Part shown: piece by piece, positions 37,362-48,030 of the stretch
How positions within the stretch are numbered: position 1 is the first letter of the stretch
Layout: every line of letters starts with the position of its first letter
Source of the DNA: Candidatus Daviesbacteria bacterium
Lineage (GTDB): Bacteria > Patescibacteriota > Microgenomatia > Daviesbacterales > UBA10151
Assembly: GCA_016187025.1 (NCBI GenBank)
Contig: JACPKM010000001.1
Span: 43,188 to 107,187 of the forward strand
Length of the DNA stretch: 64,000 bases
Direction: 5' to 3'
Notes under the pieces: generated by a model
What the model saw: only the letters and a program-made list of their open reading frames with translations
Databases searched by the model: none
What the model was told of the DNA's origin: nothing
Program-made: the position numbers and the translations under genes

Positions 37362-37543
37362 GTAAGCGACCGGATATGACTAAACTATTACCCGACCTGC
37401 TTTATTCAGATATGCGGCTAGAAGGAGAGAAGATTACCAGAAAACAAGCCAGGGATTTATTTAAATAACTACGGACTTAGGAGGTACTTGCCAAATCCGT
37501 TATAATTCGTTATAATCTGTTATAGTTAGATTATTATAAAACT

Positions 37544-43555: not shown

Positions 43556-44101
43556 TCAACTTCTTTTAACTTTAGCAAACTTTAGAATTTGGTCTTTCTT
43601 CAAAATCAGATAAGAGGAGCAGTTTTTCTGAAGGGCACGACTGATGAAATTTTCAAAGCCAACATAAATCACTTTCTTATTCTCATCTTTTGCTGTTTGA
43701 ATAGCTGGTAATAAATCTGTATCTGATGAGATAACAAAACATTTATCGTATTCATTTTTGATGGCTCCACGTACTTGATCTACTGCAATCTGAACGTCCA
43801 CACCTTTTTCATGAAATTTACCATCGGACATAAGAAGATAGCCAAGTTTTATTTTTATACCTTGTTTTCTTAAGTTTAAGAATAATGATTGCTGATTTGC
43901 ATAAAGAGTCTCCGACTTTTTATTTCCCGGATATTTCCTAATCTCTCCAACATAATAGATGATGTCGTTGGATGCAACTTTTGTTAGTGATTGAGCCAAC
44001 CCCACATAATCAAAGTTTGTTAAATGTACTTGAGATAAAATTTTCTTAACCTTTTTATAGAAGTTGCTACCATCAAATTGAACTAATATTTTCTTTTTCA
44101 C
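43556..44101 (-). CDS. NYN-domain (LabA-like) protein
   Basis: ILVQFDGSNFY...GVDVQIAVD...VISSDTDLLPA, the NYN/PIN-like Asp pattern. Confidence 0.7.
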   Translation of the reverse strand: MKKKILVQFDGSNFYKKVKKILSQVHLTNFDYVGLAQSLTKVASNDIIYYVGEIRKYPGNKKSETLYANQQSLFLNLRKQGIKIKLGYLLMSDGKFHEKGVDVQIAVDQVRGAIKNEYDKCFVISSDTDLLPAIQTAKDENKKVIYVGFENFISRALQKNCSSYLILKKDQILKFAKVKRS

Positions 44102-44136
44102 CTCTTTATCTTAGGTTATCTGAGAATTTTAAGCAA

Positions 44137-44172
44137 GAAAAACCCCCGGGTCGTAAAGAACCGGGGGGAGTT
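44137..44172 (-). terminator. intrinsic terminator (minus strand)
   Basis: CUCCCCCCGG-UUCUUUACGA-CCCGGGGG followed by UUUUUCUUGC. Confidence 0.5.
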
Positions 44173-44436
44173 AGCAAATCAAGGTATTTCCTTTTGGAAA
44201 TACAACATCATATTATCAAAAATAATGGCAAAATGCAATAACTAAATCGATCCTTGTGGCTCGCCTCGCTTTGCGGTCGAAGCGGGCCTAGATGAATCAT
44301 CAAATCTGATGTCAACGCGAGCTCCCTAACTGTAAGGCTTGTCCCGCCGAAGCCATCAGGCGAAGGAGGATACTTTTACCCCGTCTCGCCAAAGGCGGAC
44401 GAGGCTCGCCTCTGGCGGCACAAGGATCATTCGGTA
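44173..44436 (-). ncRNA. GC-rich structured RNA (unassigned; 6S-like or riboswitch-like leader are candidates)
   Basis: An extended -10 promoter (TGATATAAT, minus strand at 44451-44443) and a downstream terminator bound a transcript of about 290 nt. A 10-bp closing helix GAUCCUUGUG/CACAAGGAUC encloses about 175 nt of GC-rich hairpins, in an otherwise AT-rich genome. Confidence 0.45.
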
Positions 44437-44477
44437 CACTCATTATATCAAGAATTTGATATACTTTTCTTACATAA

Positions 44478-45167
44478 ATGAATAATCACCAACTGCAACA
44501 ACAAAAGGTAATAAATAAAATTGAAGAGCAAATAAAGGCTAATTCTTTGAATTTTAGTACTGTTTCGGCTGTCGAAGACTATGAAAGTGATCCTCGTATT
44601 TGTTTAACAAGCGTTCATTTACCCAATGAAGAACTTAAAGGACAAATTCGGGAATTATTAACTGAGCCACTACGTAAAATTGCACCGGATTTTTACTACT
44701 ACACCTCTGACTCCCTGCATATGACTATAAAGAATGTACGCGTCATCAATAATCCCCCTCATTTCGAGGAAGAGGATGTTAATCAAGCGAGGAAAGTATT
44801 TTCGCAGATCATTCCTCAACACAAACAATTTAATGTCTATTTTTACAGATTATTACTCTTTCCAAATAACCTTGCTTTACTTGGAACCTCTGACATGGAA
44901 CTTGATAGTATTATTCTTGATTTAGATGTAGCCCTTAATAAGGCAGGAATTCCTGATGACAAAATTTATGCAAACTCAAAATACTTTTTTAGCAACATAA
45001 CATTAGCAAGATTCAATACGCCACCTTCAAAGGAATTCAAGCAAAAAGTTAAGGAGTTATCAGACTCTATTAAGTTTAAACCTTATACGATTAATTCTGT
45101 TACTCTCTTGAGCTGTAATGCAGTTTTTAAGAATCGTAAAACAATAGAGACTTGGTACTTGAAATAG
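44478..45167 (+). CDS. 2H phosphoesterase superfamily protein (LigT-like)
   Basis: A first H-x-T-x motif (SLHMTIKN) and a degenerate second motif (NITLARF); size and spacing fit LigT-like proteins. Confidence 0.4.
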   Translation: MNNHQLQQQKVINKIEEQIKANSLNFSTVSAVEDYESDPRICLTSVHLPNEELKGQIRELLTEPLRKIAPDFYYYTSDSLHMTIKNVRVINNPPHFEEEDVNQARKVFSQIIPQHKQFNVYFYRLLLFPNNLALLGTSDMELDSIILDLDVALNKAGIPDDKIYANSKYFFSNITLARFNTPPSKEFKQKVKELSDSIKFKPYTINSVTLLSCNAVFKNRKTIETWYLK

Positions 45168-45273: not shown

Positions 45274-45438
45274 ATGTTGCCTTTAGATGTAATTAAAAAA
45301 TATTATCCTGATTTGTCAGATGAAGATTTGAAGAAAATACAAGTGTTTGTTTATCGATTGGGTTGTGGGATAATGCAACATTTTTATGGACAGGATTGGG
45401 ATAAGGATATTGAGGACTTGGATTTGGAAAACGAATAA
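45274..45438 (+). CDS. small protein (54 aa) with a strong SD
   Basis: AGGTGGTGA lies 7 nt upstream of the ATG; MLPLDVIKKYYPDLSDEDLKKIQVFVYRLGCGIMQHFYGQDWDKDIEDLDLENE. It is below the ORF-track length cutoff. Confidence 0.3.
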   Translation: MLPLDVIKKYYPDLSDEDLKKIQVFVYRLGCGIMQHFYGQDWDKDIEDLDLENE

Positions 45439-45558
45439 TGTTGTTCTGACAATCCAAACATGAGTTCGAATCTCGCTCGGTTTCTTGGCTATAGGGTTGA
45501 TTTCGAGGAGTTTTCCACAATTCCTTGAGGCTAAAAATTGTAGTTCGATAAAAATTAT

Positions 45559-45637
45559 TTGGTGAGCGGACCAGGACTCGAACCTGGAACCGGATGGATA
45601 TAAGCCATCTGCTCTGCCATTGAGCTATCCGCCCTTG
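45559..45637 (-). tRNA. tRNA-Ile (anticodon TAT/UAU) with an encoded CCA
   Basis: GGGCGGA-TA-GCTC-AATGGCA-GAGC-A-GATGG-CTTATAT-CCATC-CGGTT-CCAGG-TTCGAGT-CCTGG-TCCGCTC-A-CCA. Confidence 0.8.
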
Positions 45638-45654
45638 GTGCGCTGCTAATTGTA

Positions 45655-48030
45655 TCAAAGGCGAGCTCTTTGAACAATCTCTGCCTCAACCTTTACAGAG
45701 TCTCTTCCAAATTTTAGCCTTGATAGCTCTTTTATAGCCTGGGCAATTTGGAGATTTTTCATTTTATTTATCTTGTCAAAATCAGGCCTGGTATTAATAG
45801 AAAAGGGTACCACTGGCTCTCCGTTGACAATAGTTTTAACATAAGTATTAAATATTTCGACATTTACCAAATCTCTTTCAGAAAAAATAGGTGAAAACTC
45901 ATGTTGCAGGTAATTGGCATCTGTTACACCCACCCTAAAAGCAATTAAAGTACCAACATTTCCAAAAACAGCATTTTTTAGCTCTTCTCCAATCTGGCCA
46001 ATAAACTGGTTTGCAACAATTAGATTAAGTCTATACTTTCTTGCCTCAGACAATATTTCTGCAAATGTTTCTGTGGCAAAGTTTTGAAACTCATCTACAT
46101 ACAGGTAAAAATCCCGTCTTTGATCCATGGGCATATTTGCCCGGGACATTGCAGCTTGTAAAATCTTTGGCACCAAAATAAGTCCTAAGAAGTTGGAGTT
46201 TTCCTCCCCCATTTTTCCTTTTGATAAATTCATAATCAAAATTTTTCCATTATCCATGACATCTCTTAAATCAAATGAGGAATAACTTTGACCAATGATA
46301 TTTCTCATCATTTTGTTGGTAACAAAGCGGCCAAATTTAGAAACTGTGTAATCCAGCACCTCTGATTTGTGAAAGTCTGAGGTTTGGGCAATTTGATCAG
46401 TCCAGTAACGCCTAACAACAGCATCCTGTACTAAAGGCAAAAGCTCGCGGACAAACTCCGGATCTGTCATGATTCTCATTACCTCAACAAATGTACTGCC
46501 AGGCTTGGACATTACTGTTAGCATGGCATTTCTTACCCCATGCTCAAACCGGGGACCAATAATTCCGGTTTTGTTAGGATCAAAAAGCTTATACATTAAC
46601 CCGATGATTGAGGCTGTGACAAAATGTTTCTCCTGTTCAGATTTTGCCTCTAACATGTTTAAGCCAAAGGGTCTTTGCAAATCTGAAGGGTCAAAATAAA
46701 TTACATCTTCTGCTCTTTCAGGCGGTATTAGCTGAAGCAGGTCCTCTGCAGCGTCACCGTGTGGGTCAATAAAACAAACTCCTTTACCGGCATATATATC
46801 TTGCAAAAGCATAGCAAGCAACAGCTGAGTTTTTCCCATACCGGTCCGTCCTACGATATACATATGCCTTCTTCTGTCTTCTTCTCCGATAAAAATTGAC
46901 CTGGTTACCCCTCTAAAGATAGATTTGCCGATAAACATACCTGAAGATGGTATTTTTTCTGGAGCCGGAGCTTTTTTTGCATCTAGCCAGCTGATGTGAG
47001 GAGTTTCTATTGACTTATTAGGCAGATGAAAAATTGTTGATAGCTCATCGGGAGTTAAAACTGAAGGTGTAGCGTATTTTGGCTGATAACGATAAATTAA
47101 ATCAGTCATAAAGCCTTTCTCAGATGAAACTTTGGCTCCGGTAAACCCGTTATATGGACCATTAAACTGCTCAAAAGCGCTTTTCATATTGTTTAAATGA
47201 GCTTTAGCACTTTCTTTGGAGGTTGATGATGTAGCCAGTCTGATGGTTGCATAAAAACCACCTCTGGAAACCTTGGTTTCCACAGCCTCAAGCTGCTTGG
47301 CATCCGGAGGAGGTTTGGGATTATCAGGCTTTCCTGGATCTTTTTCTTTCTTTAACCAGCTTTTTCCTTTATCTTTCCATTTACTATCTGCCGGAGAAAT
47401 GATTAGTTGAACTGTTGCCCCTTCACTGGGCTGCATTTTTCCCAAGGCGGAAGTTAAAGCAGAGAGCGGATCGGTTGGTAAATCACGGTAAGTTTTTATA
47501 GGAAAATAGTCAGCGTTTTTAAGCTTAAATGATGAGTAGGCTGTAAAACCGTTTTCTGTAAAAATATTATACTCTGGTACTTCTTTGATCTCTGCATCCG
47601 GATAAGCTCCATTTATTTGTTTTTCCACCAAGTCTTGTAAGGATTTATGGCAGGAAATAAAAAACCTGATAGATTCATGTAAAGCAACTATTTCAAAAGA
47701 AAGATGAGGTTGAGGTTTAAAAGCCTCAAACAAACCACCTGATTTTCTCAAAGATGCAAGTGTTGCAAACATTTGTTCAGCTGCATCGATTTTAATCTCA
47801 TTACCTCTTGGAGCTTTAATTTGTAATAAAACAAACTGAAGAGAAGCTTTTTCCCTATCTTTGTATTTTATCCAGCCAACGAAATATTTCCTCAGGTAAA
47901 GAGTAAGTCCAATCAAAGCCATTACCAAAGCAACGATCCCCAAAACCGCCATTATCAAACTTAAGAAATCAGGACCTATTGCAGCTGTAGATCCACCTAC
48001 AGGTGCAACAACTTGTGGTGCAACCTCCAT
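45655..48030 (-). CDS. VirD4/TraD/TraG-like P-loop ATPase (type IV coupling-protein-like)
   Basis: N-terminal TM segment, Walker A IVGRTGMGKTQ, then DPHGD. 791 aa. Confidence 0.5.
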   Translation of the reverse strand: MEVAPQVVAPVGGSTAAIGPDFLSLIMAVLGIVALVMALIGLTLYLRKYFVGWIKYKDREKASLQFVLLQIKAPRGNEIKIDAAEQMFATLASLRKSGGLFEAFKPQPHLSFEIVALHESIRFFISCHKSLQDLVEKQINGAYPDAEIKEVPEYNIFTENGFTAYSSFKLKNADYFPIKTYRDLPTDPLSALTSALGKMQPSEGATVQLIISPADSKWKDKGKSWLKKEKDPGKPDNPKPPPDAKQLEAVETKVSRGGFYATIRLATSSTSKESAKAHLNNMKSAFEQFNGPYNGFTGAKVSSEKGFMTDLIYRYQPKYATPSVLTPDELSTIFHLPNKSIETPHISWLDAKKAPAPEKIPSSGMFIGKSIFRGVTRSIFIGEEDRRRHMYIVGRTGMGKTQLLLAMLLQDIYAGKGVCFIDPHGDAAEDLLQLIPPERAEDVIYFDPSDLQRPFGLNMLEAKSEQEKHFVTASIIGLMYKLFDPNKTGIIGPRFEHGVRNAMLTVMSKPGSTFVEVMRIMTDPEFVRELLPLVQDAVVRRYWTDQIAQTSDFHKSEVLDYTVSKFGRFVTNKMMRNIIGQSYSSFDLRDVMDNGKILIMNLSKGKMGEENSNFLGLILVPKILQAAMSRANMPMDQRRDFYLYVDEFQNFATETFAEILSEARKYRLNLIVANQFIGQIGEELKNAVFGNVGTLIAFRVGVTDANYLQHEFSPIFSERDLVNVEIFNTYVKTIVNGEPVVPFSINTRPDFDKINKMKNLQIAQAIKELSRLKFGRDSVKVEAEIVQRARL

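Follow-up and report, generated by a model that had tools for sequence, protein, structure and literature searches.

The interval studied here lies on the minus strand of a 64,000-nt stretch of a Candidatus Daviesbacteria contig (the window), directly upstream of a gene for a NYN-domain protein. The earlier note read it as a single GC-rich RNA of about 290 nt, bounded by a promoter and a terminator. We find instead three stacked units on the minus strand, each defined by its own promoter. The features are listed here in the direction of transcription.

44442–44450, minus strand: extended −10 promoter TGATATAAT, identified from the sequence; the predicted start is the A at 44435, 6 nt past the hexamer
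44245–44435, minus strand: expanded three-way-junction RNA, 191 nt (nhmmer and covariance model matches, family alignment, covariation, GC content)
44429–44435, minus strand: single-stranded 5′ tail ACCGAAU, with an AUG at +6 to +8 (tail fixed by the search pattern; variants found only by the covariance model keep a tail)
44419–44428, minus strand: P1 5′ strand GAUCCUUGUG, pairing with 44249–44258 (P1 is 95% paired in the family)
44380–44418, minus strand: insert A, 39 nt, which forms two GC-rich hairpins and separates P1 from J1/2 (pairwise alignment with the canonical form)
44371–44379, minus strand: J1/2 and lower P2 5′ strand GUAAAAGUA (family consensus GUGAAAGUA; motif in 100 of 105 unique copies)
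44338–44370, minus strand: insert B, a hairpin of 33 nt within the P2 internal loop (from the same alignment)
44321–44337, minus strand: P2 hairpin and 3′ strand CCUUACAGUUAGGGAGC (P2 is 95–98% paired in the family, with C-G to U-A double changes)
44317–44320, minus strand: J2/3, UCGC as against the near-invariant GAAU of the family (sequence, alignment)
44291–44316, minus strand: P3, GUUGA-CAUCA-GAUU-UGAUG-(AU bulge)-UCAUC (changes on both sides in 8/10 or 9/10 pairs, depending on the alignment)
44260–44286, minus strand: insert C, a hairpin of 27 nt preceding the P1 3′ strand (from the same alignment)
44249–44259, minus strand: P1 3′ strand CCACAAGGAUC (sequence, covariation)
44210–44238, minus strand: second promoter, sigma-70-type and conserved: TTGCAT (44238–44233), 17-nt spacer, TG-extended TAATAT TGATAATAT (44218–44210)
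44184–44203, minus strand: 5′ hairpin of the mini-transcript, GUAUUUCC-AAAA-GGAAAUAC, beginning at about the predicted transcription start
44138–44170, minus strand: intrinsic terminator CUCCCCCCGG, loop, CCCGGGGG, U5, with compensatory changes
44099–44136, minus strand: NYN promoter, of conserved layout: TTGCTT (44136–44131), 17-nt spacer, TAAGAT (44113–44108), 6 nt, GTG (44101–44099)
43556–44101, minus strand: NYN-domain gene, 181 aa (Pfam NYN, E = 2.2e-17); context, outside the RNA

Much of the earlier description stands. The extended −10 promoter is present at 44450–44442, the direct repeat GAGGCGAGCC does occur twice in the sequence, and the region holds no conserved ORF, as had been stated. 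The terminator reported before the NYN gene is a G+C-rich hairpin followed by a U-run, 37 nt upstream of the GTG at 44101, and the Pfam match bears out the NYN-domain call. The high GC content claimed for some 290 nt applies to the first 191 nt (44435–44245; 0.571, that is 57%, against 0.38 for the window) but not to the remaining ~107 nt, which are 36% GC. The 10-bp terminal helix exists, formed by GAUCCUUGUG (44428–44419) with CACAAGGAUC (44258–44249), but it encloses the 191-nt part only. A 309-nt stretch folds with −115.4 kcal/mol (z = −5.3), and none of 100 shuffles does as well.

The divergent upstream neighbour of the RNA is the gene that had been called a 2H phosphoesterase. This call is weak: the LigT_PEase match has E = 0.0015 and 19.1 bits, against a Pfam cut-off of 23.3, and the HxT motifs read HMT and NIT. 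Homologues of this gene or of the nearby integrase were found at none of 146 family loci, and the 2H-like neighbour is incidental to the RNA.

Matches obtained using nhmmer with a 315-nt region fall into two separate blocks. Their distribution was followed in 21 genome loci retrieved with the NYN protein as query, the closest of which is in a Daviesbacteria MAG (92% identity). The AT-rich 3′ block (about 44240 to 44137) lies directly upstream of NYN in essentially all loci, while the GC-rich 5′ block is found there in only five of the 21 (L001, L003, L007, L009, L017). The GC-rich block is located away from NYN in L015, L020 and L021; in L002, L004, L011 and L019, NYN is preceded by no such block or only by what is left of its P1 3′ strand. 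In about 11 NYN loci the RNA is missing upstream, yet the second promoter, the terminator and the promoter of NYN itself are all retained.

The RNA family and its length regularity

Metagenome contigs were scanned for further copies using a pattern that combines the −10 box with the 5′ tail and a portion of P1; the sample is thereby fixed for these elements. The scan gave at least 127 copies, at least 114 of them unique, from at least 120 metagenomic loci. Once chance matches had been removed, about 105 unique copies were kept among the matches listed, of which 23 are short (81–91 nt), 41 canonical (92–94 nt) and 41 expanded (to about 235 nt). The consensus begins with the 7-nt tail ACCGAAU, followed by P1 (12 bp, range 10–12 bp), J1/2 (GAAA), P2 (with an internal loop and a 7-nt apical loop), J2/3 (GAAU), P3 (10 bp with an AU bulge) and J3/1 (UAG).

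The comparative alignment suggested in the earlier note was carried out, and gives strong support for the three-way-junction fold. In an alignment of 35 canonical sequences, 93.5% of cells are paired and 11 pairs show double changes, a result equalled by none of 500 shuffles; in slid controls the paired fraction falls to 30–55%. An alignment of 91 sequences, which was fitted to the model, has 91.2% of cells paired, with double changes in 18 pairs and 152 cells, and again none of 500 shuffles reaches its score. The helix most strongly supported by covariation is P3 (8–9 of 10 pairs). P1 contains frequent G-U pairs, which are compatible with this strand only. Among the matches listed, an extended −10 box (TGnTATAMT) is found at a constant distance in about 100 copies. 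Model R1 recovered additional copies missed by the pattern, with tails ACAAUG, ACCAAAUG, ACCCAAUG and ACCGAAUGG, each having its own −10 box. Since these pattern-independent copies keep promoter, tail and AUG, the conservation goes beyond ascertainment.

Some nine loci have a second copy no more than about 5 kb away, which suggests a copy number of the order of ten per genome; the density is about one copy per 60 kb, and model R1 finds one copy within the 64-kb window. The core is not uniform. An insert takes the place of J2/3 and the P3 5′ strand in about 14 copies among the matches listed, P2 or the entire interior is missing from rare copies, and in the short clade P3 often ends in a GNRA loop.

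It is concluded that the GC-rich stretch is, on this comparative evidence, a copy, predicted to be independently transcribed, of a previously undescribed RNA family, which is multi-copy in uncultivated groundwater Microgenomates; the loci stem from aquifers (Rifle, Hainich). Judged by its covariation, the family is under selection for the three-way-junction fold; it also has its own promoter, and is independent of NYN. Its distribution so far is restricted to Microgenomates. It is the RNA family that is new, while the promoters and the terminator are ordinary.

The window copy differs from the canonical form by three GC-rich hairpin inserts (39, 33 and 27 nt), which occupy insert sites of other members. 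Modules of the insert A type, 32–40 nt long, recur in L015, L021, L067, L103, L111 and L121, and a 22-nt version of insert C is present in L029, L055 and L108. The stem of insert B covaries between copies (GCC/GGC, GUU/AAC, GCU/AGC), and some copies of this module have in-frame stop codons, both as read by eye from the module sequences. With the family helices kept, the window copy folds with −72.6 kcal/mol, compared to −81.4 for the unconstrained minimum. It has no terminator of its own, and its transcript is therefore expected to run for about 298 nt, to the hairpin at 44170–44138.

The lengths of the expanded copies follow a regular pattern. They exceed the 92-nt form by 11, 22, 33, 44, 55, 66, 99 or 143 nt, and among the matches listed 25 of the 31 well-delimited unique expanded copies have lengths congruent to 92 modulo 11. 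After clustering at 85% identity, 18–19 of 24 clusters conform. Moduli 7–10 and 12–15 give no signal on the same lengths. Unrelated inserts at four sites favour sizes that are multiples of 11, and off-size inserts can sum to such a multiple: 39 + 33 + 27 = 99 in the window copy, 40 + 2 − 9 = 33 in L021, and 33 + 78 + 32 = 143 in L020. Compensation of this type points to a constraint on total length. Measured from the start to the end of P1, the canonical form has 88 nt (8 × 11) and the window copy 187 nt (17 × 11). The short clade is outside this register. No shared helical phase between the promoter of the RNA and downstream promoters was found across contexts, the −10 boxes being at +122, +125 and +138 by hand count. 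We know of no other bacterial RNA gene that has such a rule. Candidate explanations are DNA helical phasing, A-form packing, or a partner that covers 11 nt per unit.

Downstream units and genomic contexts

The promoter and terminator of the second unit are present upstream of NYN in all loci examined. The promoter is kept there with or without the three-way-junction RNA, and both elements also occur in L028, where the promoter precedes a HigB-like gene; in other HigB-like contexts, a homologous terminator lies directly 3′ of the three-way-junction RNA. The 5′ hairpin of the mini-transcript is absent from L008, L013 and L014, which are the most distant NYN loci. A conserved linker, UUGAUUUGCUAA, separates this hairpin from the terminator. 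The terminator stem exists in 20 distinct versions, in which 91% of positions are paired and four pairs are compensatory, with a covariation score matched by none of 500 shuffles. It was unlisted in a simple terminator consensus scan with a loop limit of 8, because its loop is above that limit. On the compensatory changes, the terminator at 44170–44138 is real. As a candidate base-pairing RNA the mini-transcript was rejected: its predicted duplexes with the three-way-junction RNA, or with the NYN mRNA in its 5′ region, have energies no better than those of shuffles.

Relatives of the NYN protein have 72–95% identity across Microgenomates and WWE3. Every NYN locus read by eye, with or without the RNA, has a −35/−10 pair whose −10 box ends about 6 nt ahead of the start codon, although the sequence of this box drifts (TACAAT in L016, TAAAAT in L018, TAGAAT in L008). 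The Fic and HigB-like genes that follow other copies of the RNA have a promoter layout like that of NYN. In the window as a whole, TAnnnT boxes peak 6 nt before start codons, 10 ORFs having exactly this gap and 19 of 55 one of 5–7 nt, against a background of about two per position; a Shine-Dalgarno-like motif is seen in only 12 of the 55 ORFs. Given the −10 box 6 nt before its GTG, the NYN mRNA looks leaderless. The source genome probably relies heavily on leaderless mRNAs.

The NYN promoter lies between the terminator and the GTG. The terminator is thus upstream of the predicted NYN start, and this speaks against the second option offered by the earlier note, in which the RNA would be a leader or riboswitch of the NYN gene. 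NYN has its own −35/−10 pair downstream of the terminator, also in loci that have no RNA, and in L015, L020 and L021 the RNA is not placed next to NYN at all. A role for the RNA as a control leader for NYN is, on these promoter positions, not supported. The other option, a stand-alone RNA, is supported for the GC-rich part: this is a member of a conserved family that shows covariation and has its own promoter, and 51 of 78 canonical or expanded copies either run into a terminator or have no same-strand gene after them.

This last figure comes from a tally of context in 100 non-redundant copies among the matches listed, 78 of them canonical or expanded and 22 from the short clade. In the 78, a terminator-like hairpin is the first element downstream in 29, and 22 have no same-strand ORF within 300 nt. 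A gene having a −10 box 4–9 nt before its start codon follows in 10, a start codon lies within 25 nt in seven, and the remaining 10 have other arrangements. In the short clade, a start codon lies within 25 nt in 13 of 22 copies, and the distance from the end of P1 to the AUG, read by eye, is 10–19 nt. The tally indicates that the fold is mostly free-standing in the clade of the window copy, and forms a 5′ UTR in the sister clade. Terminators that lie 3′ of the RNA in differing contexts are unrelated to each other.

Among the matches listed, the same-strand downstream genes are NYN of the window type at 18 loci, Fic at 13, and Gp49/HigB-like toxins with an HTH partner at eight. Further downstream genes encode a second NYN paralogue, an EcoRI-type methylase, a Ser/Thr kinase, DUF5677, and many small membrane or unknown proteins. 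BrnT/BrnA-like pairs, BRO-like and GIY-YIG proteins and tRNAs are also seen as neighbours of family copies. Five pattern matches are on viral contigs, but only one (L144) is a true copy, beside a serine recombinase, which indicates that the RNA is not typically viral. A search of phage records with the 341-nt region gave no match.

Proposed mechanism and alternatives

The anatomy of the locus, that is the family member together with the surrounding units, is held with good confidence. Our preferred explanation of the whole combines this three-unit stack with a factor-binding RNA, and we put it somewhat below an even chance. In the first unit, the promoter TGATATAAT would drive a non-coding RNA from 44435, of about 298 nt, to the hairpin at 44170–44138. 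In the second, the downstream promoter would give a transcript of about 65 nt, consisting of hairpin, linker and terminator. In the third, NYN would be expressed from its own promoter as a leaderless mRNA, and the terminator would insulate it from upstream transcription, with no attenuation. The conserved junctions, the 5′ tail and P1 would form a binding platform for a putative cellular factor. Free-standing copies, including that in the window, would act in trans, while in short-clade copies of 81–89 nt, located 10–19 nt before the start codons of accessory genes, binding may gate translation initiation in cis. We infer the transcript ends, the leaderless NYN mRNA, and the action in trans and in cis through one binding event. 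The functional part of this model, a factor-binding regulatory RNA, is offered tentatively, as a possibility that we ourselves regard as doubtful. If there is such a partner, a protein is more likely than a metabolite, since the gene set is no metabolic regulon, no expression platform was found, and parts of the junction are replaceable. The diversity of the neighbours (Fic, Gp49/HigB-like, methylase, kinase, DUF5677, NYN paralogue) argues against a metabolite regulon, and the replacement of J2/3 and the P3 5′ strand in about 14 copies implies a core less strict than is typical of aptamers or protein sites.

The 11-nt rule is not accounted for by this explanation, and hints at an additional constraint, perhaps at the level of DNA. 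In an extended reading, the family would be a regulatory RNA of a new class and the common label of accessory genes (toxin, defence, membrane) that form a regulon in members of the Candidate Phyla Radiation with leaderless translation. It would be a sensor of a putative signal or an RNP scaffold, and its gene length would obey a ‘rule of eleven’, in which whole multiples of 11 nt keep the RNA, or its DNA, in register with a partner, whether this register is helical or one of protomers. We consider this unlikely as it stands.

The most serious alternative is that the family responds to a global signal as a riboswitch, or else undergoes self-cleavage or processing in cis at mRNA 5′ ends, the free-standing copies then being orphaned or read through. 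It has a three-way junction with highly conserved unpaired nucleotides, and many copies before heterogeneous genes, as for second-messenger riboswitches and small ribozymes, and in the short clade P1 ends just 10–19 nt before start codons. Position in a 5′ UTR is seen only in that clade (13 of 22 copies), and not for the window copy; at least 51 of the 78 canonical or expanded copies are left without a gene that they could control. As for an aptamer, the fold and junctions are conserved, but the replacement of J2/3 and the P3 5′ strand is tolerated in about 14 copies, and J2/3 is altered in the window copy. Inspection by eye found no consistent expression platform or alternative pairing, only weak complementarities of 5–7 nt, and searches of Rfam at up to E ≤ 1–10 gave no match to a model of either a riboswitch or a ribozyme. 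We regard this alternative as rather unlikely. A leader function confined to NYN, in which the whole ~290 nt is a riboswitch or attenuator in cis and NYN is controlled by regulated read-through of the terminator, is very improbable. RNA, terminator and NYN are indeed collinear, an arrangement found in 18 loci among the matches listed, and by eye the AGGGAG of P2 could pair with CUCCCC in the 5′ arm of the terminator. A conserved promoter nevertheless separates the terminator from the start codon; its −10 box is only 6 nt away from the GTG, and Shine-Dalgarno spacing is lacking. The supposed 290-nt leader is itself split by the second promoter. NYN loci without the RNA retain the terminator and NYN promoter, the RNA also occurs away from NYN, and in other contexts it is followed by unrelated terminators.

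A different type of explanation is that the element is a selfish, promoter-bearing repeat of MITE or Correia type, whose helix is a terminal inverted repeat and whose RNA fold is incidental. The density of about one copy per 60 kb would suit such a repeat, as would the nine or so loci that have another copy less than 5 kb away, the 11-bp inverted repeat, the modular insertions and deletion derivatives, the adjoining toxin, defence and mobile genes, and the one copy next to a serine recombinase. We think it improbable: the conserved promoter and 5′ tail are outside the inverted repeat, P2 and P3 show compensatory changes and P1 has G-U pairs, copies on the same contig differ by compensatory changes (read by eye), and the NYN loci reflect deletion of an ancestral copy rather than insertion. 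No transposase was seen, nor, in a non-systematic inspection, any target-site duplication. The family could also be a generic stabiliser or insulator cassette that has no specific ligand. A strong promoter followed by a stable fold at the 5′ end, perhaps together with a ribosome retained on the 5′-proximal AUG, would then serve to protect, or to standardise, expression of any sequence downstream. The RNA is always at the transcript 5′ end and always has a strong extended −10 box, its most conserved parts are the tail, AUG and P1, and it can be the 5′ UTR of unrelated genes. Yet free-standing, terminator-bounded copies carry no payload, and covarying P2 and P3 helices and conserved junctions would be unnecessary. 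A 7-nt single-stranded tail is, moreover, long for a protective 5′ hairpin. This explanation is decidedly improbable. Finally, the AUG at +6 might open a near-leaderless micro-ORF (MILVVKVPYC* in the canonical form), given that the AUG is retained in all variants, that a 10-codon ORF is found in 60 of 105 copies among the matches listed, and that the genome probably uses leaderless starts. The AUG is however 5 nt from the 5′ end rather than at it, and peptide length and sequence vary with the inserts. Substitutions are spread evenly over codon positions (16, 16, 15) and stop codons occur within covarying insert hairpins; on these two grounds the micro-ORF was ruled out, and it is given almost no credence.

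The factor-binding RNA remains our preferred explanation. RNA-based regulation in the Candidate Phyla Radiation is little known because the bacteria are uncultivated, and the family offers a handle on the control of accessory genes in reduced genomes, both for metatranscriptomics and for in vitro biochemistry. The probable leaderless mRNAs change how intergenic regions in the source genome are to be read. The 11-nt rule, if confirmed, would point to an unrecognised physical constraint, for example DNA phasing or packing against a partner.

Comparison with known systems

The earlier note could not match the RNA by eye to RNase P, SRP, tmRNA or common riboswitch cores. Covariance-model searches of Rfam 15 likewise gave no match to any family, 6S, Y RNA and small ribozymes included. 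At gathering thresholds, only two tRNAs were found in the window. At E ≤ 10, the region gave only noise driven by the terminator, the best match being NsiR1 with 21.3 bits against a threshold of 39. Canonical and short copies from 22 other loci, searched down to a permissive E ≤ 1–5, also gave only tRNAs. Resemblances to hammerhead, tRNA-like, SRP, 5S, TPP and GEMM RNAs were considered by eye and rejected, the defining motifs being absent or contradicted by covariation. A search of the literature on noncoding RNA, RNA motifs and leaderless expression in the Candidate Phyla Radiation and Microgenomates found nothing relevant.

The description as ‘6S-like’ holds for size, at about 190 nt for the window copy, and like 6S RNA the molecule has a closing helix formed from both ends. 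It does not hold for the fold: 6S RNA is a rod that opens into a large central bubble, whereas the present molecule is a three-way junction. The family is also multi-copy, has a canonical length of 92 nt, and shows no Rfam 6S match. Correia, ERIC and MITE repeats are similarly multi-copy, with an inverted repeat, a promoter directed at the neighbour, and insertion and deletion variants, but in the present family the promoter is outside the repeat, internal helices are kept by compensatory changes, and no target-site duplications were seen. Riboswitches for second messengers, in particular c-di-GMP-I (GEMM-I), share a three-helix domain of about 90 nt present in many copies before heterogeneous genes, including those for membrane and unknown proteins. 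They differ in that the family has no model match or recognisable expression platform and a replaceable core junction, and in that most of its canonical copies are bounded by a terminator or have no downstream gene.

For the mechanism proposed above, the analogy used is that of protein-titrating small RNAs that have counterpart sites in cis in mRNAs (CsrB/RsmZ and CsrA), where one motif is found both in free-standing RNAs and beside the start codons of mRNAs. The analogy is one of function, as the family has no GGA-loop repeats and a single motif per RNA. Orphan structured RNAs discovered through comparative genomics, such as raiA, ROOL and the DUF3800-associated motifs of Rfam, are also intergenic, with their own promoter and a fold backed by covariation, and are often near mobile or accessory genes. 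The family is set apart from them by matching none of 4227 Rfam models, by its modular GC-rich inserts, and by its 11-nt length rule, for which the proposed ‘rule of eleven’ would have an analogue in the viral ‘rule of six’.

Length register and degenerate copies of the RNA family

Among the matches listed, 25 of the 31 expanded copies of the three-way-junction RNA differ in length from the 92-nt form by a whole multiple of 11 nt, and no length signal was found in the expanded copies for any other modulus from 7 to 15. Indels in the separate inserts of one copy offset one another, both in the family loci and in the window copy (44245-44435, minus strand).

Four loci carry degenerate copies of the RNA, none of which conforms to the 11-nt register:

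L036, 426-471: degenerate RNA copy
L052, 2668-2713: degenerate RNA copy
L010, 1665-1731: degenerate RNA copy
L022, 2110-2176: degenerate RNA copy

In two of the four, P1 closes around CCGCCAnAGGCGAGCC alone, as expected from recombination between both GAGGCGAGCC repeats, and in the other two P2 is missing.

A single copy was found in the 'viral' contigs of IMG/VR (locus L144, 10522-10608, minus strand). A DUF3800 gene lies on one side of it and a large serine recombinase on the other. Xre/ImmA-like genes and a C5 methylase are close by, and the end of the contig carries a tRNA; the setting looks like an integrative element.

Second conserved element and mini-unit

In 19 loci, the RNA is followed by a short AU-rich terminator and, close behind, by a second element, which is conserved, about 100 nt long and often has a tRNA after it. 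The sequence of the element runs ...GGUAAUAGACCGUCAGAUAGGAAUAAUCUGAUAAACUCUGGCAGUCUGNNUAA...CGUCAGGAGCUCC; the alignment comprised 17 distinct versions, for which the RNAalifold consensus is weak, and searching Rfam at E ≤ 5 gave no match. A separate mini-unit precedes the NYN gene in all loci and, in L028, a HigB-like gene. Its transcript is predicted to be about 65 nt long.

L127, 14140-14256, minus strand: second element (other examples in L032, L043, L051, L056, L113 and L129)
Window 44138-44238, minus strand: mini-unit, comprising promoter, 5' hairpin, linker UUGAUUUGCUAA and terminator
L028, 5600-5730: mini-unit in its second context, 5' of the HigB-like gene

Neighboring genes and promoters

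The 181-aa NYN protein (43556-44101, minus strand) is 72-95% identical across Daviesbacteria, Levybacteria, Gottesmanbacteria, Woykebacteria and WWE3, which is unusually high for a CPR protein and suggests a core, constrained function. The "2H phosphoesterase" (44478-45167, plus strand), whose promoter TGATATACT is back to back with that of the RNA, scores under the Pfam cut-off and may be inactive or divergent, because its second catalytic motif is NIT instead of HxT. Further features are:

45293-45658: 121-aa ORF, overlapping the tRNA and probably spurious
45560-45634, minus strand: tRNA-Ile, anticodon UAU
45655-48030: 791-aa VirD4/TraG coupling protein-like protein, adjoining the tRNA
37480-37543, plus strand: Fic promoter with GTTATAAT-like direct repeats
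Fic loci such as L058 (2146-2195): Fic promoter with three CGTCTA direct repeats

Across the whole window, -10-like boxes are most frequent 6 nt 5' of start codons (5-7 nt in 19 of 55 ORFs) and Shine-Dalgarno motifs are scarce (12 of 55). Leaderless mRNAs seem to be common in this genome. The Fic genes have leaderless-type promoters, and the short direct repeats on their flanks, GTTATAAT-like or CGTCTA in three copies, look like operator sites.
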